From Escherichia phage vB_EcoM_Skers: a stretch of 64,000 nt of DNA. The stretch lies in sequence record MW748999.1, one strand, 5' to 3'. Positions 11,200 to 49,602 of the stretch are shown here, one piece after another (within the stretch, counting starts at the first letter, position 1; each line of letters starts with the position of its first letter). The notes under the pieces are model-generated. The model did not search any database. It saw nothing but the letters and a program-made list of their open reading frames with translations, and was not told the DNA's origin. The position numbers and the translations under genes were made by a program.

Positions 11200-11379
11200 T
11201 TAGAACATTTTTGAAATTAATTCTGCTTTGATTTCGCAGAGAACATCTAAAGATTTCTCGTCACCTGCTTTTGCGGCTTCTGCTTGCATTTTTGAAATGG
11301 CTTCAATGTCAGTGCAATTATAAGCCGCTTGAACTTTAGCGATTGCGATGATTGCCGATTCGATGGTTAAGTGTTTCAT
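11200..11379 (-). CDS. Hypothetical small protein (59 aa), not in ORF track
   Basis: ATG at 11377-11379 with SD GGAGAATCAAAC; PeSL promoter upstream; translation MKHLTIESAIIAIAK.... Confidence 0.45.
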   Translation of the reverse strand: MKHLTIESAIIAIAKVQAAYNCTDIEAISKMQAEAAKAGDEKSLDVLCEIKAELISKMF

Positions 11380-11411
11380 GTTTGATTCTCCTTTCGTTTC
11401 GGTATGTGTGT

Positions 11412-11440
11412 ATTATAGGGGATCGATGATCCCCTGTCAA
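11412..11440 (-). promoter_or_regulatory. PeSL-type early promoter cassette
   Basis: TTGACA-N17-TATAAT with 17-nt palindromic spacer GGGGATCatcGATCCCC. Confidence 0.75.
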
Positions 11441-11447
11441 CAACTTT

Positions 11448-11966
11448 TTAGTTATTTTTTAATTGCTCATCTTGCAATAGGGCAATCACATGCTGGCGAT
11501 GCTCTTCCGATTGAGGCACACCGAAAAAGTTTGTTTTGTAGAAATACTCTAATCGGTCTTCTCGTGTGCTCTCTTCCATCATGATCGCTGGTAGTCCGAG
11601 ATTTCGGAAACGTCGCTTTTCTGCTGGAGTAAAATCACTGTAATACAACATAGAATCATCATTACCAGCAATGCTAAACTCATCCTTCATAAAGGAGAAT
11701 ATTGCGTTTAAACGCTGTTTACCGTCCACGATTTCGATCTCATAGCGAGAGCCATCATCAATCTTAGCCATTGCGATAGCACCAACCGGAAAATCATTAA
11801 TAAGGTTTTCGATAAACATACGTTTGTTTTCTGTGTCCCATACTAAAGGACGCTGATAATCTGGGTTCATGTTGATATAGCCATCTTCTAACCATGCATC
11901 ATAAACAGAGATGACAAAGTTTTTAGTATTGGTATAGTAACGGCGTTTAGGCGTTAAACGGTTCAT
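11448..11966 (-). CDS. DUF262 (ParB-like / GmrS N-domain-like) protein
   Basis: DGKQRL (DGQQR-type) motif and PDYQRPLVW; start trimmed to ATG 11966 with SD AGGAG; last gene of five-gene operon. Confidence 0.6.
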   Translation of the reverse strand: MNRLTPKRRYYTNTKNFVISVYDAWLEDGYINMNPDYQRPLVWDTENKRMFIENLINDFPVGAIAMAKIDDGSRYEIEIVDGKQRLNAIFSFMKDEFSIAGNDDSMLYYSDFTPAEKRRFRNLGLPAIMMEESTREDRLEYFYKTNFFGVPQSEEHRQHVIALLQDEQLKNN

Positions 11967-13503: not shown

Positions 13504-13543
13504 TGTTTGATTCTCCTAAGTGGTATCTCGTCTTGATGGTTGT

Positions 13544-13572
13544 ATTGTAGGGGAGTTATCCTCCCCTGTCAA
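13544..13572 (-). promoter_or_regulatory. PeSL-type early promoter cassette
   Basis: TTGACA-N17-TACAAT; spacer is the palindrome GGGGAGgataaCTCCCC. Confidence 0.75.
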
Positions 13573-13586
13573 CACTTTTTATAAAA

Positions 13587-13754
13587 TCATTTGTTAATTT
13601 CTGGTGCGTTGCTAGGATAGTAACCTTCTTTAACTCCGAGGTATTTCGCAACCATCCCTACAATCTTCTGTGCTACTACAATGTCAAATTTCAGATAATC
13701 TTCGCCGTGGGTTTCAATGATATATGCTTCACATGCTGCTTTCGTCTCGAACAT
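13587..13754 (-). CDS. Hypothetical small protein (55 aa); paralog of 16858..17025
   Basis: Start trimmed to ATG 13754 (MFETKAACEAY...); the ORF-track N-terminus runs into the promoter. Confidence 0.6.
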   Translation of the reverse strand: MFETKAACEAYIIETHGEDYLKFDIVVAQKIVGMVAKYLGVKEGYYPSNAPEINK

Positions 13755-13787
13755 TTTGATTCTCCTATATCTCGTTGGTATGTGTGT

Positions 13788-13815
13788 AGTATAGGGGATC
13801 ACCGATCCCCGTCAA
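13788..13815 (-). promoter_or_regulatory. PeSL-type early promoter cassette
   Basis: TTGACG-N16-TATACT with palindrome GGGATCggtGATCCC; almost identical to cassette at 17060..17088. Confidence 0.7.
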
Positions 13816-13829
13816 CAACTTTTTTAAAA

Positions 13830-14111
13830 TTATTCGTGATTAGTTTCGATGTTGTGCATTTTGCACCAGTTCAGCCAATCGCCCAGATCCTGATAGTTGA
13901 TGCTTTTATCTGCTGCCATCGTTTTTGTCTTGATACCCATATGTGCGTTATGAGTAAGCATTTTTACAGTGAACTCGATTTTATCGCCTTTAGCTTTAAC
14001 ATCAACCAGTTTGGTCCACTGGCTACCAGCGCCGCGAATGTTCATACCAACGATGTTTCCGATGTATGCTTCTTTGTTTTTCAGGATTTCGGTTGCTTTG
14101 ATGAATTTCAT
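13830..14111 (-). CDS. Hypothetical protein (93 aa)
   Basis: ORF with SD; PeSL promoter upstream. Confidence 0.6.
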   Translation of the reverse strand: MKFIKATEILKNKEAYIGNIVGMNIRGAGSQWTKLVDVKAKGDKIEFTVKMLTHNAHMGIKTKTMAADKSINYQDLGDWLNWCKMHNIETNHE

Positions 14112-14145
14112 TGTTTGATTCTCCAGTTCGTTTCGGTATGGGTGT

Positions 14146-14174
14146 ATTATGCTATGTTCTTACTTTGGTGTCAA
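14146..14174 (-). promoter_or_regulatory. PeSL-type early promoter (degenerate, no palindrome)
   Basis: TTGACA-N17-CATAAT; conserved UTR CGAAACGAACT. Confidence 0.65.
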
Positions 14175-14183
14175 CAACTTTTT

Positions 14184-14453
14184 TTAGATATTTTCAGAAA
14201 TAAATTTTAAAACTTGACGTAAATGTTTCTCATCTTTGATAGTCGCCGGAAGTTCTTCTTTTACTTCCTGTGCAAGATAGATATTTCCGTTCCAAGTGAA
14301 AGATCCGTCTTCGTTTACGCGATAGCTGAACATCCACTCGCAATCATTTTCGATTTCATATACACACAGAAGGGTGTAATCGTTAAAGCTATTGATTTCA
14401 AGGTCGAAGCCGTGGCGTTTTGCAAAGTTGGTAGTGGTTTTAGTCAGTGCCAT
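14184..14453 (-). CDS. Hypothetical protein (89 aa)
   Basis: ORF with SD AGGAG; promoter upstream. Confidence 0.6.
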   Translation of the reverse strand: MALTKTTTNFAKRHGFDLEINSFNDYTLLCVYEIENDCEWMFSYRVNEDGSFTWNGNIYLAQEVKEELPATIKDEKHLRQVLKFISENI

Positions 14454-14493
14454 TGTTTGATTCTCCTAAGTGGTATCTCGTTTCGATGTGTGT

Positions 14494-14522
14494 ATTATGC
14501 TATAGGCGTGATCTGGTGTCAA
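14494..14522 (-). promoter_or_regulatory. PeSL-type early promoter (degenerate)
   Basis: TTGACA-N17-CATAAT. Confidence 0.65.
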
Positions 14523-14540
14523 CAACTTTTTTAATTTTTT

Positions 14541-14573
14541 GGAAATAAAAAAAGCCGACACTAAGGTCGGCTA
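14541..14573 (-). terminator. Intrinsic terminator
   Basis: AGCCGAC-loop-GTCGGCT followed by TTTTTTTATTT on minus strand, after 14580..14891. Confidence 0.65.
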
Positions 14574-14579
14574 ATAAAA

Positions 14580-14891
14580 TCATTTAGACAAATAATCATT
14601 CTGTGCAATCCGGTCAGCATGTTCCGGCGTTACGTCAATTGCAATCACTTTAACGCGCGCTTTCTTGACTGAATTTTCTCGTAGCCAGTGCGTGTGAGCG
14701 TGCACATTTTTATATTTTGATGCTGATGCGGTTTCAAAGGTACGGATCGGACCAGGGTAATCAGCGTAAAGGATCTCTAGGTCATCGGTGATGTAAAAAT
14801 ATACATCATAATTACTGTTCTCTAGTTTAAGCAGAGACTTTCGGAACATTGGGAGATTTTCGCGGGTAAATTCAAAGATATTATCTTTCAT
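14580..14891 (-). CDS. HxHW-motif small protein family member (103 aa)
   Basis: Shared motifs YITDDL, HAHTHW, IAIDV. Confidence 0.6.
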   Translation of the reverse strand: MKDNIFEFTRENLPMFRKSLLKLENSNYDVYFYITDDLEILYADYPGPIRTFETASASKYKNVHAHTHWLRENSVKKARVKVIAIDVTPEHADRIAQNDYLSK

Positions 14892-14913
14892 AGTATTATC
14901 CTCAATAGTTGGA

Positions 14914-14936
14914 TGAAAAGGGGCGTTAACGCCCCC
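14914..14936 (-). terminator. Intrinsic terminator
   Basis: GGGGCGttaaCGCCCC followed by TTTTC on minus strand. Confidence 0.55.
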
Positions 14937-14941
14937 ATATA

Positions 14942-15229
14942 TTAAAACAGTCCTTCCTGTACACCGTAGTAGAGTTCATCGCTGATAATTTCATTAATGC
15001 GACGGTGTGCATATTCCTGATTTGCGAAGTTATCAGCAAGTTCTACTTTAGTTTCGCCGTCATGAGTCCATTTAGTGATAACTTTACCATCTGCAAATTT
15101 GAAGTTGAACTCTTTAGCTACCGCATCGCGTACCAGACGTGCAAACTTATTGTTGCGGATTGCATTGTCGGTTTCGTGTGCAGCGTGAGCGAATTTGTTA
15201 ACTTTCAGGGTGATAGTAATGTATGCCAT
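14942..15229 (-). CDS. Hypothetical protein (95 aa)
   Basis: ORF with SD; PeSL upstream. Confidence 0.6.
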   Translation of the reverse strand: MAYITITLKVNKFAHAAHETDNAIRNNKFARLVRDAVAKEFNFKFADGKVITKWTHDGETKVELADNFANQEYAHRRINEIISDELYYGVQEGLF

Positions 15230-15275
15230 AATTTGATTCTCCTAGTTAGAAAGTGTATCTCGTTTCGATGGGTGT

Positions 15276-15304
15276 ATTATGCTATACACCCGATCTTATG
15301 TCAA
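15276..15304 (-). promoter_or_regulatory. PeSL-type early promoter cassette
   Basis: TTGACA-N17-CATAAT; palindrome GGGTGTAT/ATACACCC. Confidence 0.7.
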
Positions 15305-15310
15305 CACTTT

Positions 15311-15589
15311 TTATAAAATAATTTTTTGATATTTTTCTATGATGTTCGTGTAAGTCACATCAACCGCTAGCACCGTTGCTTCGAATCCACCGTTTAGCCA
15401 ATGGCTATGATCATGATCGTGAAAGAAACCTAGACCAGTACGAAGACCTTCTTTATATTCTGCGCGTACATTCAGTTTGTCGTCGATAAACAGATAAAAC
15501 CATGAATTTTTACTAGGATTGATGATACAACCTTTCAGATTAGGGAGAATATCACGACTAAGAATAAACTTATCACCTACTTTGAACAT
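15311..15589 (-). CDS. HxHW-motif small protein family member (92 aa)
   Basis: FIDDKL, HDHSHW, LAVDV. Confidence 0.6.
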   Translation of the reverse strand: MFKVGDKFILSRDILPNLKGCIINPSKNSWFYLFIDDKLNVRAEYKEGLRTGLGFFHDHDHSHWLNGGFEATVLAVDVTYTNIIEKYQKIIL

Positions 15590-15603
15590 AATATTTTCCT
15601 CAC

Positions 15604-15912
15604 TTATAAAGTTTGACCGTTGTTTTTCGCATAATGCTTAATGCGTGCTTGATCTGCTTCCGCTGGTGATAGATTCCATGCAACCACTACAACTTCTGAC
15701 GCATCATGATCATTATCACTTACCCAATGATTATGATTCATACAATTGTTTGCTATCGCGTGAGTAAATGATCTCATTACCGGAGACGTATAATCATAGT
15801 AACGGATTTTCAGATTTTCATCAACGTACAAGTAGATCGTATACGGCTTATATTCAGTAACCAGTAACAGACAGTTACGCAATTCTGGGAAAATCTTTTT
15901 AGTTAATTTCAT
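15604..15912 (-). CDS. HxHW-motif small protein family member (103 aa)
   Basis: Start trimmed to ATG 15912 (SD GAGGA); YVDENL, NHNHW. Confidence 0.55.
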   Translation of the reverse strand: MKLTKKIFPELRNCLLLVTEYKPYTIYLYVDENLKIRYYDYTSPVMRSFTHAIANNCMNHNHWVSDNDHDASEVVVVAWNLSPAEADQARIKHYAKNNGQTL

Positions 15913-15913
15913 T

Positions 15914-16135
15914 TTATAATCCTCGGTCGCGGCTATAGTACACTGTACGCCATACAATTTCATGTTTCGTGTCGCTCCAGCACACGATCTCATTTACTCT
16001 TAAATCTTTGTTATCAACAAAAGATGAACATTGTGACGCTTCTTTCATCATTTTATCTGCTGTTTTCTCATCAAATACAGCACAGATTTCTTTATACACT
16101 CGATAATCTTTAAACTTGCTCATAATTAACACCAA
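15914..16135 (-). CDS. Hypothetical protein (73 aa); tandem paralog of 16126..16335
   Basis: Shared MSKFKDY...KMM.EAS.C.SF pattern with neighbouring gene. Confidence 0.55.
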   Translation of the reverse strand: MVLIMSKFKDYRVYKEICAVFDEKTADKMMKEASQCSSFVDNKDLRVNEIVCWSDTKHEIVWRTVYYSRDRGL

Positions 16136-16335
16136 TCAAGAGTTTTTGAAAACACATCTATCCATTGTTGAGTATATGCGGTTTCTTTCCATGACACAAT
16201 ACCAGTCGAATAATGGTTTTTGTTTCCAGAAAAGGACGGGCATTTTGATGCATCTTCCATCATCTTTTCGGCGAACTCTGGTGCGTATACTCGCAGGATC
16301 TGTTGATATGCTTTATAGTCTTTAAATTTGCTCAT
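16126..16335 (-). CDS. Hypothetical protein (69 aa); tandem paralog of 15914..16135
   Basis: See paralog. Confidence 0.55.
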   Translation of the reverse strand: MSKFKDYKAYQQILRVYAPEFAEKMMEDASKCPSFSGNKNHYSTGIVSWKETAYTQQWIDVFSKTLDWC

Positions 16336-16600
16336 AATCGTTAACTACCTTATCAGCTTCTTTTATTGTTTTTACATCAACTGCGATAATCCGTAAAGGT
16401 TCGTCGAAGGTCCACCAGTGGTCATGAATATCAGCTTGTGATTTATCACCAAAGGAATCACGAATATCATTTTTACATTTATAGCTAATGTGACCTTCAT
16501 AGTCAACATAAAGGTAATTATCGAAAATCGGCGTTTTTAAGATCATACCGAAAAATCTTTCTTTGTGTGTCTTATCCAGTGTTGCAGTAATTCGCATCAT
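16322..16600 (-). CDS. HxHW-motif small protein family member (92 aa)
   Basis: YVDYEG, HDHWW, IAVDV. Confidence 0.6.
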   Translation of the reverse strand: MMRITATLDKTHKERFFGMILKTPIFDNYLYVDYEGHISYKCKNDIRDSFGDKSQADIHDHWWTFDEPLRIIAVDVKTIKEADKVVNDYEQI

Positions 16601-16612
16601 AATATATTCCTC

Positions 16613-16792
16613 TTAGAAAGGGATGGTCATTTCTTGAGCTTGTACATTCTCGTTAGGATTAAACTTCATCCAACCGATATTGTCTACCAGCATATGCACA
16701 TTTTTATCATATCCTACGTGAGTAGTCAACACTAAATGTGCTTTACCTTCAACGATGATTTCCATGTACTTCTGAACTTCGATAGCTTTCAT
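16613..16792 (-). CDS. Hypothetical small protein (59 aa), not in ORF track
   Basis: ATG 16790-16792 after SD GGAGAATCAAAA and PeSL promoter; translation MKAIEVQKYMEIIVEGK.... Confidence 0.45.
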   Translation of the reverse strand: MKAIEVQKYMEIIVEGKAHLVLTTHVGYDKNVHMLVDNIGWMKFNPNENVQAQEMTIPF

Positions 16793-16825
16793 TTTTGATT
16801 CTCCGTTTGTTGTCTTGATGGGAGT

Positions 16826-16854
16826 ATATTACTACTCCCTTTAATCATTGTCAA
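16826..16854 (-). promoter_or_regulatory. PeSL-type early promoter cassette
   Basis: TTGACA -35; palindrome GGGAGTA/TACTCCC spans AT-rich -10. Confidence 0.65.
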
Positions 16855-16857
16855 CTA

Positions 16858-17025
16858 TTATTTGTTAATTTCCGGTGCGTTGCTCGGATAGTAACCTTCT
16901 TTAACACCCAGATATTTCGCAACCATTCCGGTGATCTTCTGTGCTACTACGATATCGAATTTCAGGTAGTCTTCACCGTGGTTTGCTACAATGTATGCTT
17001 CGCATTCTGCTTTAGTCTGGAACAT
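16858..17025 (-). CDS. Hypothetical small protein (55 aa); paralog of 13587..13754
   Basis: MFQTKAECEAYIVANHGEDYLKFDIVVAQK... near-identical to 13587..13754 product. Confidence 0.55.
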   Translation of the reverse strand: MFQTKAECEAYIVANHGEDYLKFDIVVAQKITGMVAKYLGVKEGYYPSNAPEINK

Positions 17026-17059
17026 TTTTGATTCTCCTATATCTCGTTGGTATGTGTGT

Positions 17060-17088
17060 AGTATAGGGGATCACCGATCCCCTGTCAA
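17060..17088 (-). promoter_or_regulatory. PeSL-type early promoter cassette
   Basis: TTGACA-N17-TATACT with palindromic spacer GGGGATCggtGATCCCC. Confidence 0.75.
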
Positions 17089-17096
17089 CAACTTTT

Positions 17097-17399
17097 TTAT
17101 TCTTCGTCTTTATCTTTATATGCGTATTTCATAAATTTGTCTGCTACTTCATCGGCATGTTCCGATTCTACGTCGGATTCGAGAACAATAGCAAGATCGG
17201 TTTCGTCGTTTCCGTCATACCAATGATTATGGGTATCGTTTTCTTCGATATAGAATGAGTCATTTGGAGTTGGACGACAATATACATCTAAATTCTCATC
17301 GATGTAAAAGATCCAATCTTCGTAAAGAATAACCGTATTAGCCAGATTTTTATTGCCTTCAACGAAAGGTTCAGCTACAAATAGCTTAGTTTGTTCCAT
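17097..17399 (-). CDS. HxHW-motif small protein family member (101 aa)
   Basis: Start trimmed to ATG 17399; YIDENL, THNHW. Confidence 0.55.
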   Translation of the reverse strand: MEQTKLFVAEPFVEGNKNLANTVILYEDWIFYIDENLDVYCRPTPNDSFYIEENDTHNHWYDGNDETDLAIVLESDVESEHADEVADKFMKYAYKDKDEE

Positions 17400-17415
17400 A
17401 ATATTTTCCTCAAAA

Positions 17416-17607
17416 TTATACAGCTTCGTAAACTTCCCAATGTTCAGCGCCAGCACGCTTAACGAAAAGGTTTTCTTTGATGTTATTCATAAACGTCTGG
17501 ATGGATTTAATGCGGTTGGAAGGTTTCCAGTCTTCGTTGGAATTGCGTCGATACATCATAACATTACCAGATCGCTTATATTCAGCAACCATTTTAAGAC
17601 CACACAT
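17416..17607 (-). CDS. Hypothetical protein (63 aa)
   Basis: ORF with SD GGAGG-like upstream. Confidence 0.5.
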   Translation of the reverse strand: MCGLKMVAEYKRSGNVMMYRRNSNEDWKPSNRIKSIQTFMNNIKENLFVKRAGAEHWEVYEAV

Positions 17608-17663
17608 AATATTATCCTCAATTTGTGGGAGAGTATTACCCTCCCGATTATTGTTATACTACA

Positions 17664-17966
17664 TTACGCAAAATGGCGTGTCAATGCTTCTTTTGCTGTT
17701 CCGCTAAGATTCTCGATCTCTCCTGGCATAACATCAACCGCCAGAACTTCTACAACATCCTCTGATCCTAACCAGTGAGTATGACCTTTGTAGAACTTGA
17801 TATCCCATTTATCGCTATCGCTAGCCCACCACACATCACCGTCGATAAAGTTGATGTAAAGCACACTACGACACATTGAATTAATTACTTTCAATACTGC
17901 GCCTTTCATATCTTCCACGGTATGGTCTTCCATTTTGAAGACCTCACCTACCTGAACTTTTGCCAT
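17664..17966 (-). CDS. HxHW-motif small protein family member (100 aa)
   Basis: GHTHW, LAVDV. Confidence 0.6.
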   Translation of the reverse strand: MAKVQVGEVFKMEDHTVEDMKGAVLKVINSMCRSVLYINFIDGDVWWASDSDKWDIKFYKGHTHWLGSEDVVEVLAVDVMPGEIENLSGTAKEALTRHFA

Positions 17967-17983: not shown

Positions 17984-18163
17984 TTACATAACAATCACGC
18001 CAGCCGTTGAAAGTTGATGTTTCAACTGAGCATTTTCTGCTACTGTCAAATCAATGATTTCTTGTGACGCTGCAATCATATAGCCATTGGTGATATTGTT
18101 TTTCATCAGTTCAATGGTTTCTTCGTTGTAGCGGATTTTAGCGATGATTTCGTTGAAGTTCAT
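17984..18163 (-). CDS. Hypothetical small protein (59 aa)
   Basis: Start trimmed to ATG 18163 downstream of PeSL promoter (MNFNEIIAKIRYN...). Confidence 0.5.
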   Translation of the reverse strand: MNFNEIIAKIRYNEETIELMKNNITNGYMIAASQEIIDLTVAENAQLKHQLSTAGVIVM

Positions 18164-18197
18164 GTTTGATTCTCCTAGTTCGTTTCGGTATGTGTGT

Positions 18198-18226
18198 AGT
18201 ATAGGGGATCGGTGATCCCCTGTCAA
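18198..18226 (-). promoter_or_regulatory. PeSL-type early promoter cassette
   Basis: TTGACA-N17-TATACT; spacer palindrome GGGGATCaccGATCCCC. Confidence 0.75.
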
Positions 18227-18239
18227 CAACTTTTTTGAA

Positions 18240-39744: not shown

Positions 39745-42700
39745 ATGGCAGATTTTTCTCAACATTTCAAGGCCACATTTGGCTTTGATGCTGGTAATGA
39801 AAAGGTCGTCAATGTAGCATTGGCTGATAAGAATGTCAACACCGATGCGGTCAACGTTGAATTTTTCAATTACCATAATGGTATTACTCAGTATGACACA
39901 ACTCGCGGTTATGATCAATACGGAACTACAATCTATCAAAACCGCCCGTATTATGCAAAAGAAGATATCGCAAAACCAGCAGGTGACTTTGACCCGACTA
40001 AATGGCAAGCACTGCGCACGGACCCACGTTGGGATTATGTTGCAGCAACTTCCGGCGATACTCCTTTAAAGTCCGGTGATTATATCGCAGCGGACTGTCA
40101 GTTTGCAAACTTGACATTCTCAATGCCTACTAATCCGGCAGAGGGCGACACTATAACAGTAAAAGATATCGGTGGCAAGTGCGGTGTTAATGAGTTATCG
40201 TTCCTTGCGGCTGGTCATGAGTTCTATCATAACGGTGTGGTAAACAACCGCAAATGGTATTGTACTACCCCTTATGCAATGAACTACTTCATTTTTGCTC
40301 GCAATCGCTGGCACGTTTACCAGACGGGAACGGAGCCACGCGGGGTATATGCACAGCCATCTATTGATCCGATCCAGATGCAAAACGGTGATCAGGTATT
40401 CCGCCGTAGTTCTTTGGGTAACATTGTTTTGATGCTTCCTAAGTTTGCTAATAACGGTGATATGATCCAGACTACCGATCTTGACGGATTGACTGCAACC
40501 AACCATGTTACGGTAAAAGTGCATGAAGGTGCGCAAGAACAATCGATCGGTACTTTCGGGGTAAAAGAAATTGTTGGTAAGCGTAGCGGTCATGGTGTAT
40601 TCATCTTTGACAAACCGGAAAACTTATGGCGTTTGTGGGATGGCGATCAGTCTGTTCGCTTGAATCCTATCATTAGTGATACTCGCTTATCCCCTAATAG
40701 CTATGTTGCTGTATTTGGTGATCGTGATGTTACCTTGACTTTACCGACCAATGTCGAGCCGGGTGATCGTATTCAAGTTTCTATGCAGTATATGCACGGA
40801 AACCAGACTTGCCGAATCATTACCTCAGAAGAGGATACAAAAATCCTTATGCAGAAAAACATGGTTCAGTTTCCTAAGCGTAGCGAGTACCCATTCAATG
40901 GGACCGATACATGGACGGGAGTGTCTGAATTGTCTTTCAACGCTGCAAATGATTATGTACCTTATCTGGAGTTCTCTTATTCAGAAGGTGATGATGGTAA
41001 GAAATACTGGTTGGTGGCACATGCTCACCCGATTGTAGAACGAGTAGATCCGACTCGTAAAGATCGTGTTGGTGTAATTGCACTGGCTACCCAGGATGAA
41101 ACAAACAAAAACCATGAAGATAATCCTAGCGACGAAGTTGCGGTGACTCCAAAGGTTCTGGCTAACAAAACAGCCAACGAAACTCGACGCGGTATTGCTC
41201 GCATTGCAACTCAAGCGGAAACGCATCAAGATACTGGTTCCAGCTTCCTGGATGATGTTATCGTTACACCTAAAAAGTTAAATGACTGTGTTGCTACCGA
41301 AGACCGTCGTGGTGTGATGGAAATTGCAACTCAACATGAAACAAACGAAGGTTTAGACGATACCCGCGCAATCACTCCTAAGAAGTTAGAAGAACGTCGC
41401 GCGTCCGAGGATCTTGCTGGTATCGCTGAAATTGTTCAGGTAGGCGGTAATGCTGCCGCTCTAAGGGGTGAAGCTGGTACAGGGATCTATAATATCAATG
41501 ACCATGCTAAAATTGTTACACCGCAAAACATCAACGAAGTTAAGGCGACCGAAACTTCCCGTGGTGTTGGGTATCTGGCGACGGATGAGGAAGTTCAAGG
41601 GGCGACTGAATCAACCCCACAAGATGCATTGCTTATCACTACTCGCACGTTAACCAAGCGTACTGCCACCGAATCCCGTACTGGTATCGCTGAAATTGCT
41701 ACGCAGGAAGAAACTAACTTAGGCCAAAGTGACAACCATATCATCACGCCTAAAAAGCTACATACTCGCCGCGCAACGGAAACTTTACACGGTTTAGCAG
41801 AAATTGCAACTCAGTCTGAATTTGACGCAGGTCGTGACGATGCTCGCATTTCTACCCCATTGAAGATTAAAACCTTCTTTGAGAATGCACAGCGTTTGAA
41901 AGTAGATCCGACTCAGGGGCTTAACCTTACTGGTGATTTGTGGCAAGGTATCATGATCAGCGGTCTTGATGCAACCGAAGATACAAAAGGTGTCGCGAAA
42001 GTTGCAACTACTCAGCTTACAGACGCAGGAGAAGATGACGCTACGATCATTACTCCTAAAAAGCTGCAAGGCAAAAAGGCCACCGAAGGTAAAGAAGGTA
42101 TTATCCGAGTTGGTACTCAAGACGAAACCGTAGCTGGTACTATGGACAATGTAGCAATTTCTCCGAAGAACTTCAAATATGTTGTTCAGACAGAGGATAC
42201 ATGGAAAGCAACCGAATCGCGTCGCGGATTCCTGAAAGTAGCAACACAAGAAAACTGTTTTGTTGGTGACAATCTGCAAGGTTCTACTCAAGATCTTGAT
42301 AACTATCAGCATGACGGGATTGCGGTAACTCCGAAAGGATTAAACTACGCACTTGCTAATTTCTTACCTAAGATGGCAACCGCTCAGAATAGTTTGAAAT
42401 TGGGTAACGTAGAGGCCGCTAAATGGGCGCGTAGAGACATTGACCAGACCATAGAGAGCAATTACACGTTTAATAAAAACGTTAACGTGAAGGGCGATTT
42501 AGAGTGCTTAAAATCAGGTTCCTTTGAAACTCTGTCTGTGACTAAGAACTCTACTGATGATCCGAGTAATGGTCATCTGGTGTTGGGTGAGCGTGGAGTT
42601 GACGGTCACACCGGAATTACTCTGCATGGCACAACCGCATCGGAAGGCATGGAAAACTCATGGTCTATTATCGTTGGTGGCACTGGAACATCTCAAGTTG

Positions 42701-46419: not shown

Positions 46420-49400
46420 ATGGCAGATTTAAACAGAATCCAGTTTAAACGCACTAGCGCAGCCGGACGTAAACCGGATGCTGGTACGATGAATCCGGGA
46501 GAGTTGGCAATTAACTTAGCAGACCAATATCTGCTTACAAAAAATGATGGTGGGCAAATTGTTAATTTAAGTTGCCCGCCAGTTTATGACAAGAGCGTAG
46601 ATCGGAAGAGCACACCGTCTGAACTCCAGTCACCGGCTATGATCTCGTTGACCGCCGTGGTCTACACGGCCCTGAACACTCTTTCCTACACGACGCTCTT
46701 CCGATCTGCAGATTTAAACAGAATCCAGTTTAAACGCACTAGCGCAGCCGGACGTAAACCGGATGCTGGTACGATGAATCCGGGAGAGTTGGCAATTAAC
46801 TTAGCAGACCAATATCTGCTTACAAAAAATGATGGTGGGCAAATTGTTAATTTAAGTTGCCCGCCAGTTTATGACAAGAGCGTTAATGTAAAAGGTCGTG
46901 TGGTTGCAGATGACCTTATGTGGAGTAATACCGCAAACTATTTCGATGACCCAACCGCACGGAATCTTGATAAATTCGGTGCATTTCGTACTAATGATAT
47001 GGATGGTCATCTAGCATTGGCTTTGCATATTCCTCATCCTAGCGGTATAAACCATGCTCGTGGGTTGGATTTTACTTATGGTTCTAACGTTGTTCCTACT
47101 GTAAAAACCTATGGTTATAACGCTGATGGTGCATTGGCATATTCATATCGCATGTATCACGAAGGTGATAAGCCTAGTCCGTCAGAATTAAATGTATACA
47201 GCAAACAAGAAGTAGATCGGATGTTCCAGAAGACCATCAACTTTGGTGTAGAAACTGGATGGTTTAAAATTGCTACAGCATTTATTCCGCAAAATGATGG
47301 ACGTAGCTTGAAAATTAGATTGGTTGGTGGAAATGGGTGGAACGTAGGCCAAACGGGACAATGTAATATTATTGAACTTGTTATAAGGACTAGCAACGGT
47401 TCCCCTAAAGGAATTAACTTTGTTGCATATCATCATGTTTCTGGTTACGAAAATCAATTTTGTGCCATTAATACAGGTGATGACACTTATGATATCTATG
47501 CATATTACTACGAATTTACTAATATGGTATTGGCTGAATATCAAGCGTCCAGCGATGTTAATTTAACTGTATTTGATCGACCTGAATATGTAGGCGAAAA
47601 ACCTGTAGCTGATCATATCTATGATGCATATACAATACGCTCCTTTAACAGTTTCAGTAACCGTGGAACATTAAATTTTGCTGGCAACCATCAAGGCCAA
47701 TATGACATTGAGCATATGAACGAACAACCGACAAATGCTAAAAAGATGTTGCGTCGGTTTCGAAGCTCTGCCAGCGCGACAATCTGGCATGAAACCGTTG
47801 ATGACCAGAATTATCGTCTTGCCGCTGGAAGTACAGACTCAAGTCAACAATTATTGTTGTCTACTGGGACTGGTTTGCATATTCGTAGATTGACCATCGA
47901 TGGTGGCTTAGGTTCCGGTTCTAATGCTGGTATTGATATTCGTCGAGGACCAAACGAATCAAGCCATTTTAATTTTATGGATTATCGCACTGGTCAAGAT
48001 GTTCGTAATGGTTGGTTTGGTTTTGGTGATTTGACGACCAAAGATTTTATTTGGTGGAACGATAACGGTCAAAACTCGATAAACTTGATCGAAAACGGTG
48101 AATTACATATTACTGGTGGTAAAGGCCAGAAAATTGTAATGAATAGCGAAGTTGCATTATCTGAAAATGCTCGTTTGGCTGTTAAAGGTGGTAATTATGG
48201 TTTGTTGTTCCGTAATGATGGTGTTAGTTTCCATATACTGACTACTAATTTAAAGGATTCTTTTGGAAATTGGAATAATCGTAGACCATTTAGTTATGAT
48301 TTTGCCGAAGGTGGATTGGATCTAGGTGGTACTGAAACTGCTCGTTGTTTGCATCTGGGGATCGATGGTAGTACCCGCATCGAAGATAACTTAGTTTTCC
48401 GATCTGGGTCGCGTCAATCAATGGACTATATTGAAATGATCCATTGGGGTAACAGTAATACAGGACGCAACAACGTTTTGAGTATGAAAGACTCGAAAGG
48501 ATTCTTGGCTGAATTTGAGCGCACCGGAACCAATAGCATTAAAACTAGATTCTTTGGTGAAACATTCACTGATGGTACATTATACCTAAATCAGATGAAT
48601 AATAGCTCTGAACGATTCTCTATCAATAATTGGGGAAATTCAGAAGTTGGTCGCGCGGCAGTCTTAGAAGTTGGTGATTCTAAAGGTTATCACTTTTATG
48701 CTGAACGCAGGACTGATAATAGTTCTTTGTTCTCTGTTGGTGGTGCTTTGTTTGTGCAGGGACCTTCCGGGATTATTATCAAAAACTCTGCTGGTGCTCG
48801 CCATGTTTGGTTTAAAGATGACGGTGATAATGAAAAGGCTGTTATTTGGGCGACCGATGAAGGTATATTACATCTACGAAATAATCATGATGGTGCATTT
48901 AGTCATCACTTCCAGGGCGCAATGATTAAACTGCAAGGGCGTGTTCCTTATGATGCAGCAAAGGGAATTGTTCGTGGTGAAGTTTCTGGTGGTGCATATG
49001 TTGCATGGAGAGACCGCCCTGCTGGTTTGTTAGTTGACTGCCAGCAAAGTGTTGATAGTGCTCATGCTGTTTGGAAAGCGGTTGATTGGGGGCGTCAATA
49101 TATCGCTGCTATGGACGTTCACTGTCCTGGTGATGGTAATAATACCGCAGCCGCTGTTCTTCATGTTCAGGCTGCTGATTATCAATTCCATGCAAGCGGA
49201 GAATTTCATGCCAGTGGCAACGGAAACTTTAACGATGTGTATATTCGTTCTGACCGTCGCCTTAAAGACAATATAGAAGATTATACTGGAAATGCGTTAA
49301 GTTTGATTGGTAAACTGAAAGTGAAAACTTACGATAAAGTTAAATCTCTTAAGGACCGTGAAATTATCGGTCACGAGATCGGCATTATCGCACAGGATTT

Positions 49401-49602
49401 ACAAGAAATATTACCGGAAGCTGTAAAATCTTCAAAAATTGGCAATCTTGATAATCCAGATGAAATTCTGACAATTTCTAACTCTGCCGTGAATGCTCTT
49501 TTAATTAAGGCTATTCAGGAAATGAGTGAAGAAATTAAAGAATTGAAAACACCTCTCTTTACTAAAATTGCTCGCAAAATTAGTAAATATTTTAAATTCT
49601 AA
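46420..49602 (+). CDS. 37: Long tail fibre distal subunit gp37 with C-terminal intramolecular chaperone domain; reading frame includes a 285-bp probable assembly artefact
   Basis: N-terminus MADLNRIQFKRTSAAGRKP...GELAINL matches gp37; C-terminal SDRRLKDNIEDY chaperone-type motif; codons 60-154 derive from adapter plus duplication. Confidence 0.85.
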   Translation: MADLNRIQFKRTSAAGRKPDAGTMNPGELAINLADQYLLTKNDGGQIVNLSCPPVYDKSVDRKSTPSELQSPAMISLTAVVYTALNTLSYTTLFRSADLNRIQFKRTSAAGRKPDAGTMNPGELAINLADQYLLTKNDGGQIVNLSCPPVYDKSVNVKGRVVADDLMWSNTANYFDDPTARNLDKFGAFRTNDMDGHLALALHIPHPSGINHARGLDFTYGSNVVPTVKTYGYNADGALAYSYRMYHEGDKPSPSELNVYSKQEVDRMFQKTINFGVETGWFKIATAFIPQNDGRSLKIRLVGGNGWNVGQTGQCNIIELVIRTSNGSPKGINFVAYHHVSGYENQFCAINTGDDTYDIYAYYYEFTNMVLAEYQASSDVNLTVFDRPEYVGEKPVADHIYDAYTIRSFNSFSNRGTLNFAGNHQGQYDIEHMNEQPTNAKKMLRRFRSSASATIWHETVDDQNYRLAAGSTDSSQQLLLSTGTGLHIRRLTIDGGLGSGSNAGIDIRRGPNESSHFNFMDYRTGQDVRNGWFGFGDLTTKDFIWWNDNGQNSINLIENGELHITGGKGQKIVMNSEVALSENARLAVKGGNYGLLFRNDGVSFHILTTNLKDSFGNWNNRRPFSYDFAEGGLDLGGTETARCLHLGIDGSTRIEDNLVFRSGSRQSMDYIEMIHWGNSNTGRNNVLSMKDSKGFLAEFERTGTNSIKTRFFGETFTDGTLYLNQMNNSSERFSINNWGNSEVGRAAVLEVGDSKGYHFYAERRTDNSSLFSVGGALFVQGPSGIIIKNSAGARHVWFKDDGDNEKAVIWATDEGILHLRNNHDGAFSHHFQGAMIKLQGRVPYDAAKGIVRGEVSGGAYVAWRDRPAGLLVDCQQSVDSAHAVWKAVDWGRQYIAAMDVHCPGDGNNTAAAVLHVQAADYQFHASGEFHASGNGNFNDVYIRSDRRLKDNIEDYTGNALSLIGKLKVKTYDKVKSLKDREIIGHEIGIIAQDLQEILPEAVKSSKIGNLDNPDEILTISNSAVNALLIKAIQEMSEEIKELKTPLFTKIARKISKYFKF
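46423..46598 (+). repeat. Direct repeat copy 1 (176 bp) flanking adapter-derived insert
   Basis: Identical to 46708..46883. Confidence 0.9.
46599..46707. other. Illumina adapter-derived sequence (sequencing/assembly artefact)
   Basis: Contains AGATCGGAAGAGCACAC(C)GTCTGAACTCCAGTCAC and ACACTCTTTCC(-)TACACGACGCTCTTCCGATCT, near-exact TruSeq adapter sequences. Confidence 0.9.
46708..46883 (+). repeat. Direct repeat copy 2 (176 bp)
   Basis: Identical to 46423..46598; offset 285 bp keeps gp37 frame. Confidence 0.9.

Follow-up and report, generated by a model that had tools for sequence, protein, structure and literature searches.

Background

The genomes of phages RB49 and phi1 each hold about 50 promoter-early stem-loop (PeSL) motifs, most densely in their hyperplastic regions (Arbiol, Comeau, Kutateladze, Adamia, Krisch 2010, PMC2839356). 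As defined in that study, a PeSL comprises an AT-rich tract that follows the upstream gene's stop codon, a TTGACA-N17-TATAAT promoter with a GN-loop-CN hairpin that mostly lies between the -35 and -10 hexamers, and a Shine-Dalgarno (SD) sequence with the start of an ORFan. PeSL206/205 was cloned and had a promoter activity of ~13,000 Miller units, terminator activity was published just for PeSL211/210, PeSL193/191 was derived by the authors as a single PeSL from excision of the open reading frame (ORF) ORF192, with PeSL193/192 also among the experiments, and ORF191 was present on a sequenced ORF191-194 mini-circle (PMC2839356). Here, two such modules, the orthologues of ORF191 and ORF205 with the PeSL cassette upstream of each, were analyzed in a stretch of 64,000 nucleotides (nt) from Escherichia phage vB_EcoM_Skers (MW748999.1), the whole of which is called the window. 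We conclude that both modules very probably go back to an old gene duplication, and that in the lineage of the window phage the core of the ORF191 cassette would have been converted by the ORF205 cassette.

Earlier publications already cover the element type, its part in recombination and even these two cassettes, and no new kind of element is revealed here. The new details are modest: the paralogy of ORF191 and ORF205, a lineage-specific conversion tract, natural recombinants and loop flips. The main texts of PMC2839356 and of Comeau et al. 2014 (PMC4122927), supplements aside, mention neither the paralogy or duplication of ORF191 and ORF205, nor gene conversion between PeSLs, nor deletions between non-adjacent PeSLs 3.3 kb apart. 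The window elements are like the PeSLs of RB49 and phi1 in belonging to the same genus and the same hyperplastic region, in being orthologous and in having matching anatomy, and deletion junctions in relatives fall between the -10 hexamer and the ATG, where those of the published mini-circles also lie; what the window adds is a cassette with a converted core and with unconverted edges and gene.

PeSL cassettes were likened to integron cassettes, and PeSL modules were proposed for horizontal transfer (PMC2839356). Integron cassettes and the morons of lambdoid phages are likewise single small genes with their own expression signals, inserted or deleted as units at intergenic sites, and circular intermediates have been proposed for PeSL modules as well. 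In contrast to integron cassettes, PeSL modules have no known integrase or attC-like site, and their exchange is apparently general homologous recombination over 15-60-nt homologies. The difference from morons is that in PeSL modules the promoter is itself the recombination substrate.

Two copies of a promoter and small-gene module

Judged by its sequence, the window phage is a Krischvirus, an RB49-like T4-type coliphage. The 9 kb round both modules shares 95-96% identity with Krischvirus genomes, FL37, ELT4 and ELT3 among them, and has no identical record (megablast), and the ORF order agrees with the annotated ORF185-212 of RB49 and phi1 (NC_005066, NC_009821; synteny and sequence alignment). 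The comparison set consisted of the homologous region of 16 further Krischvirus genomes and 10 extra contigs encoding the ORF191 protein, which the collection indexes in 377 blocks.

The original prediction, made from the letters of the window, named a duplicated small gene with its promoter cassette, the copies lying about 3.3 kb apart. Alignment of both modules bears this out, with a repeated unit of one promoter cassette and one ORF (~240 nt) and a distance of 3271 nt between the copies. The features of the two modules, with their basis in brackets, are:

13587..13754, minus strand: copy A, an ORF of 55 amino acids (aa), orthologue of RB49p191 / phi1 ORF191, phrog_8009 (gene calls, synteny, PHROGs)
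13755..13826, minus strand: cassette A, equivalent to PeSL193/191, a mosaic with A-type edges and a B-type core (alignment, promoter and hairpin scans)
13754..13810, minus strand: 57-nt exact run in cassette A, the maximal block holding the inferred conversion tract (longest shared run)
13504..13586, minus strand: PeSL191/190, the next cassette downstream of copy A, with hairpin GGGGAGGATAACTCCCC, at the 3' end of the A module (hairpin and cassette scan)
16858..17025, minus strand: copy B, a 55-aa ORF, orthologue of RB49p205 / phi1 ORF205, phrog_8009 (gene calls, synteny, PHROGs)
17026..17099, minus strand: cassette B, equivalent to PeSL206/205 (alignment, promoter and hairpin scans)
17026..17082, minus strand: 57-nt partner of the exact run in cassette B, the presumed donor (longest shared run)
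16793..16857, minus strand: PeSL205/204, the next cassette downstream of copy B, with hairpin GGGAGTAGTAATATACTCCC, at the 3' end of the B module (hairpin and cassette scan)

Homology extends from TAAAAAAGTTGTTGAC (13826 / 17099) to the stop codons (13587 / 16858), giving spans of 13587-13826 and 16858-17099 on the minus strand; beyond the stop codon each copy is followed by a different promoter cassette. The intervals first proposed, 13578..13825 and 16850..17095, therefore contain the duplication, and only their low ends have to be corrected, having taken in 8-9 non-homologous bases. Both 55-aa products exist exactly as quoted in that prediction, and a tblastn search of the whole window returned no third copy of the ORF. 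Among the 58 Krischvirus records of the phage collection, tblastn detected both copies, at constant positions, in 51 and one copy in the other 7, which answers the call for a copy-number check in related genomes. As the coding sequences (CDS) of the copies are 16% diverged and both are present in these 51 independent records, the duplication is not a collapsed or mis-assembled repeat.

Near-identical cassettes before diverged genes

By their anatomy, cassettes A and B are PeSL elements and orthologues of the named PeSLs of RB49 and phi1. The stop codons of both genes upstream, ORF193 (13830-13832) and ORF206 (17097-17099), are associated with an AT-rich tract, TAAAAAAGTTG, at 13816-13826 and 17089-17099, upstream of the -35 hexamer. 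A stem of 7-8 bp, GGGGATC-GGT-GATCCCC, is predicted between -35 and -10 in both cassettes, and AGGAGAATCAAA(A)ATG, the SD sequence and start codon, precedes both ORFs. In a promoter scan against the sigma-70 consensus, cassette B (TTGACA-17-TATACT) matched at 11/12 positions and cassette A (TTGACG-16-TATACT) at 10/12. Folding z-scores for the whole cassettes were weak (-0.7, -1.3), and the rest of the cassette is unstructured. The sub-segments, all on the minus strand, are:

13816-13825, cassette A: AT-rich tract
13810-13815, cassette A: -35 hexamer TTGACG
13794-13810, cassette A: hairpin GGGGATC-GGT-GATCCCC
13788-13793, cassette A: -10 hexamer TATACT
13767-13778, cassette A: B-type block CCAACGAGATAT of the 5' untranslated region (5'UTR)
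13762-13766, cassette A: SD AGGAG
17083-17088, cassette B: -35 hexamer TTGACA
17066-17082, cassette B: hairpin
17060-17065, cassette B: -10 hexamer TATACT
17039-17050, cassette B: 5'UTR block
17034-17038, cassette B: SD

Across 71 aligned positions the two cassettes have zero substitutions. The original prediction was right that they are almost identical, and its single base difference at the -35/spacer junction has to be replaced by two 1-nt indels: one at that junction, TTGAC[A]GGGG, where the A is present in cassette B and missing in cassette A, and an extra A in cassette B between the SD sequence and the ATG. The window holds 29 sigma-70-type cassettes with SD, start codon and ORF, and when all of these are aligned globally with each other (406 pairs), A/B comes first with 97.3% identity (median 59%, 95th percentile 76.5%).

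The coding sequences differ at 27 of 168 nt (83.9% identity), with 19 of the differences at third codon positions, and their products at six amino acids, in keeping with the scattered substitutions and few residue changes first described. The lower divergence of the promoter part is also confirmed (0/71 cassette vs 27/168 coding substitutions, Fisher p = 6.3e-5). In RB49, Phi1, Whisky, G2248, FL37 and ELT4, the A and B cassettes are 83-90% identical and the CDS 84-86%, so that the near-identity of 97.3% is specific to the window phage. Cassettes of the same subfamily are 80-93% alike, even before unrelated genes.

A mosaic cassette upstream of ORF191

The standard ORF191 cassette, the form of 17 among 23 examined, reads TTGAC-GGGGATC-GGGA-GATCCCC...CCGAAACGAAAT-AGGAGAATCAAAATG, and the ORF205 cassette reads TTGACA-GGGGATC-GGT/ACC-GATCCCC...CCAACGAGATAT-AGGAGAATCAAAAATG. 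Cassette A of the window combines the two, in the layout ORF193 tail, TTGACGGGGATCGGTGATCCCC...CCAACGAGATAT, ORF191 start. On its left edge it keeps the A-type missing A (TTGAC-GGGG) and the ORF193 tail, and on its right edge the A-type AATCAAAATG with the shorter A-run. Its core is B-type, with the loop GGT and not GGGA and the 12-nt 5'UTR block CCAACGAGATAT and not CCGAAACGAAAT; both loop and block match those of the window's own ORF205 cassette exactly. Downstream, the CDS of ORF191 is entirely A-type. The diagnostic B-type changes all fall within ~13767-13803, about 37 nt, inside the exact block of 57 nt. These A-type edges around a B-type core point to a short, recent gene-conversion tract in cassette A.

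This pattern resembles ectopic gene conversion and concerted evolution as known elsewhere, where a short identical tract at paralogous loci, here with flanks ~16% diverged, is accompanied by lineage-specific mosaic patches and has a history discordant with that of its flanks. The window tract is identical at both loci, is bounded by locus-specific markers and is absent from the orthologous loci in relatives. It differs from the usual case in being very short (<=57 nt) and regulatory, and the ~50 similar cassettes genome-wide provide several possible donors.

Comparable mosaics are present in other genomes. Whisky has a cassette A in which the UTR block alone is converted, FL37 and JSE have a cassette A with a B-like -35 and an ACC loop together with an A-type UTR, and G2248 has an ORF205 cassette with the A-type GGGA loop. 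Within the coding sequences (28 copies examined), patches touch silent sites only: Cognac, FL37, Whisky and phiS have a B-like patch at ORF191 positions 114-141, Brandy has an A-like one at ORF205 positions 51-75, and single B-like sites occur in ORF191 of JSE and of two contigs (L023, L027). Such block patterns indicate that conversion is recurrent in the genus. In a four-gamete test on the 28 modules, 207 of 666 site pairs failed.

Recombinants in related phages

The suggestion in the original prediction of homogenization or recombination through the cassettes thus receives support from the mosaic cassette A and the comparison with other genomes, and in addition from natural deletion variants. 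The two modules enclose the following interval:

13827..16792, minus strand: 10 small early ORFs, orthologues of ORF193-204 (gene calls, synteny)

In Cognac and FL04, a single cassette comes after the ORF206 tail, with an A-type CDS and ORF190 behind it, and the 3.3-kb interval (ORF193-204) is gone together with one module. The FL04 join lies in the -35/stem, and Cognac has a B-type cassette followed by an A-type CDS with a B-like patch. Brandy, JK32 and UPWr_E1 are without ORF191 alone; their chimeric cassette takes its left half from PeSL193/191 and its right half from the deletion partner, PeSL191/190, and the join falls between -10 and SD. MIZ4 has lost ORF191-186 with a join in CATACCGAAACGAA to PeSL186/185. 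In phiS (locus L020, 1400-1720), ORF210-206 are lost, and PeSL212/210 is fused at SD-ATG to the start of ORF205. All of these junctions, in FL04, Cognac, Brandy, JK32, UPWr_E1, MIZ4 and phiS, lie inside PeSLs.

The junction between ORF193 and ORF191 is an insertion hotspot. RB49 has ORF192 there (L001, 4449-4925), JSE has an unrelated 312-nt ORF (L017, 4421-4732), and further inserts occur in MIZ2/3/6, FL38 and G2494; in the window and phi1 the junction is empty, both being without the ORF192 that RB49 has between ORF193 and ORF191.

Deletions and insertions with junctions in PeSLs are outcomes predicted by the PeSL model, and the variants are those expected if PeSLs serve as recombination sites that insert or delete flanking ORFs. 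They provide population-level support, drawn from sequence alone, for PeSL modular shuffling in T4-type phages, which earlier had its basis mainly in one phage pair and mini-circles detected by PCR. Across ~25 independent Krischvirus genomes, conversion patches and deletions have their junctions in different PeSL sub-segments, and the evidence includes a 3.3-kb, 11-gene deletion (the ten intervening ORFs and one module) between both modules.

Divergence and origin of the 55-aa protein

Between copies A and B, pS is 0.56 (dS ~1.05), dN is 0.055 and dN/dS is 0.05, values which imply that both copies are functional and are kept under strong purifying selection. The six amino-acid differences are fixed over 13 A and 15 B copies, with the sole exception of RB49 copy A, which has the B-type residue at position 13. 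The family is phrog_8009, of unknown function (PHROGs match only); Pfam gave no match for copy A, copy B or the neighboring ORFs. The family is very small in the homology search, with 4 clusters and 9 representatives at E < 1e-3, ~4 of them credible, and none gave a functional lead. A low-confidence AlphaFold model (pLDDT 67) shows two helices, one at residues 5-16 and the other at 18-39; the C-terminal tail, KEGYYPSNAPEINK, is unmodeled but invariant.

Outgroup homologues include 51-aa proteins, 69-72% identical, in ~45-kb siphoviruses (Swiduovirus, Skatevirus). In vB_EcoS_swi2 (Swiduovirus) and SeSz-2 (Skatevirus), the 51-aa homologue is the first gene of an opposite-strand two-gene block (L003 and L004, 3001-3358) that has small genes on one side and the large terminase gene on the other; this block is moron-like and without a PeSL. 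The metagenomic contig Logan SRR5584643 (L015, 3723-4165) has an 83% identical ORF191-like gene, overlapped (ATGA) by an ORF194-like gene with no cassette between them, an arrangement which hints that the ORF194-ORF191 neighborhood may be older than ORF193 and that copy A may occupy the ancestral position.

The A and B proteins are 89% identical to each other, and either is 69-83% identical to the three outgroups. Both have the derived residues HGED at 16-19, KY at 37-38 and the terminal K, which are absent from all three outgroups. Being closer to each other and sharing derived residues, A and B appear to be each other's closest relatives, which favors paralogy by duplication in the Krischvirus lineage over two separate imports. 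That duplication is probably old and would predate the radiation of the genus. Synonymous sites are nearly saturated.

Proposed mechanism and alternative explanations

Each module consists of a PeSL and a 55-aa early gene, the PeSL being made up of an AT-rich tract, a near-consensus sigma-70 promoter whose spacer holds a G4/C4 hairpin, a short 5'UTR and the SD. Each cassette is predicted to direct strong early transcription of its own ORF by the host RNA polymerase, and immediate-early expression by this enzyme can be inferred for PeSL promoters from PMC2839356. The hairpin, lying upstream of the cassette's own transcription start, is predicted to attenuate read-through from the gene above. 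The sequence patterns suggest that the cassettes act as short homology patches for the phage's efficient homologous recombination, giving crossovers and patchy gene conversion. In the window lineage, a core of ~37-57 nt of the ORF191 cassette (loop, -10 and 5'UTR) would have been replaced by ORF205 cassette sequence, and this replacement would leave the cassettes almost identical while the genes are 16% diverged. In relatives, the same conversion process, resolved as a crossover, would have deleted or moved modules. A prediction for the window phage is that the 57-nt perfect direct repeat makes the 3.27-kb ORF193-204 interval prone to deletion and to mini-circle formation at raised frequency. 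In RB49 or phi1, the longest run that the modules share is only about 24 nt.

There is a slim chance that the PeSL hairpins are structure-dependent exchange substrates, through template switching at a hairpin or cruciform or through a recombination factor that binds hairpins. This idea is put forward because of the GGT/ACC loop flips, the FL04 crossover in the 7-nt stem and the silent-only coding patches that preserve two isoforms. If true, PeSL and ORF modules would amount to an integrase-free cassette system resembling that of integrons.

Several results weigh against the account of duplication followed by conversion. A crude PHI-type permutation test on the 28 modules was not significant (p = 0.078), so that the case for recombination is made from multi-site block patterns and no formal statistical support is claimed for it. 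No other record contained exactly the window's mosaic cassette (best match Whisky, 98.3% over 171 nt), and exact-pattern scans for the chimeric cassette/CDS junction gave no match in IMG/VR or metagenome contigs, although these collections are uninformative here, as only one IMG/VR contig has even the standard junction. The cassette stem is not followed by a U-run and the terminator scan made no call, so that the stem is not certain to act as a terminator. With the PeSLs of this subfamily so alike, the original duplication may have brought its cassette along, or an ORF alone may have landed between resident PeSLs. Finally, the record contains, at 46599-46707 on the plus strand, 109 nt which we take to be Illumina TruSeq adapter read-through (AGATCGGAAGAGCACAC...CGGCTATG...ACACTCTTTCC-TACACGACGCTCTTCCGATCT). 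They lie inside the 5' end of a tail-fibre-like ORF of 1060 aa (46420..49602), between the two copies of a 176-nt direct repeat of 100% identity (46423-46598 / 46708-46883). This feature at 46423-46883 is almost certainly an assembly artefact of the genome record, which leaves a small residual probability of an assembly or polishing error at cassette A.

The near-identity of the cassettes could be explained by selection alone if regulatory sequence, under stronger purifying selection than synonymous sites, had stayed the same without any conversion; promoter hexamers, AT tract and SD are indeed common to all PeSLs, and subfamily cassettes resemble each other before unrelated genes. This is nevertheless highly improbable, and we rejected it on the six-genome comparison and the 17/23 standard A-type cassettes. 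The same two cassettes, 83-90% identical in six other genomes, there have a different loop and 12-nt UTR block, and the prevalence of the other variant among orthologous ORF191 cassettes means that this sequence is free to differ and that the window state is derived; moreover, all changes in cassette A relative to the standard A-type go towards B and lie in one contiguous block. It is quite unlikely, if somewhat less so, that the homogenized core of cassette A arose as an artefact of assembly or polishing in which reads of cassette B were mis-assigned, the duplication itself being real. The adapter sequence with its perfect 176-nt repeat elsewhere in the same assembly and the lack of the exact mosaic in any other record speak for such an error, but A-specific 1-nt indels enclose the tract on either side within 72 nt, so two template switches in one read length would be needed, and comparable natural mosaics are present in independent genomes of other laboratories (Whisky, FL37, JSE, G2248). 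The duplication, reproduced in dozens of independent genomes, is unaffected by this question. For the origin of the pair, the competing explanation is that two ORFs from different phages were inserted independently at PeSL sites, for example as mini-circles, and are xenologues. Homologues exist outside the genus (the siphovirus proteins and the protein on the metagenomic contig, which is unrelated), PeSL modules have been proposed as vehicles of horizontal transfer, and dS of ~1 is far above the divergence between orthologues; but A and B share derived residues missing from all three outgroups, their identity to each other (89%) exceeds that to any outgroup (69-83%), few outgroups as there are, and both occupy constant positions in 51/58 Krischvirus records. 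Independent acquisition is therefore unlikely, and old duplication followed by conversion of the cassette core is the explanation we prefer.

Other cassettes and features of the region

The 29 cassettes of the window all lie on the minus strand and cluster at 11-18 kb, 26 kb and 54-55 kb. Two further members of the A/B subfamily are:

18161..18236, minus strand: sister cassette, equivalent to PeSL212/210, with the flipped loop GGGGATC-ACC-GATCCCC, 88% identical to cassette B
11377..11449, minus strand: further same-subfamily cassette, GGGGATC-ATC-GATCCCC, with an A-type-like 5'UTR

The changes that separate window cassette B from phi1 PeSL206/205 are a flipped loop (GGT vs ACC) and an extra A. 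Across orthologous and paralogous cassettes, the loop flips between GGT and its reverse complement ACC, and the palindromic stem GGGGATC/GATCCCC is kept; such flips were seen in the window at 18204-18226, 17066-17082 and 13794-13810, and in comparison loci L002, L008, L009, L013, L014, L018 and L020, and TGT and GGGA loops occur too. The flips suggest repeated hairpin inversion or template switching. The -35/spacer difference (TTGACG with 16 nt in A, TTGACA with 17 nt in B) is conserved in most genomes, which raises the possibility that the paralogues differ in expression level. A search of Rfam at a permissive threshold returned just two sub-threshold small RNA matches, both unrelated to the cassettes.

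The small-gene block with both modules is bounded by alt (ORF184) and the HNH endonuclease/ligase in the RB49/phi1 order. Gene duplication is common in this hyperplastic region (14580-17966, minus strand). About six paralogous small genes on the minus strand (14580-14891, 15311-15589, 15604-15993, 16322-16600, 17097-17456 and 17664-17966; phrog_9345/15965/15972) have an H-x-H-W ... (I/L)AVDV motif in common, and a tandem pair starting with MSKFKDY occurs at 15914-16135 / 16126-16335 (minus strand, phrog_8471). Elsewhere in the window, a 48-nt motif is present four times at 41080-41847 on the plus strand, with 60-73% identity and irregular spacing, and these repeats probably encode a peptide motif in a fibre or structural gene.

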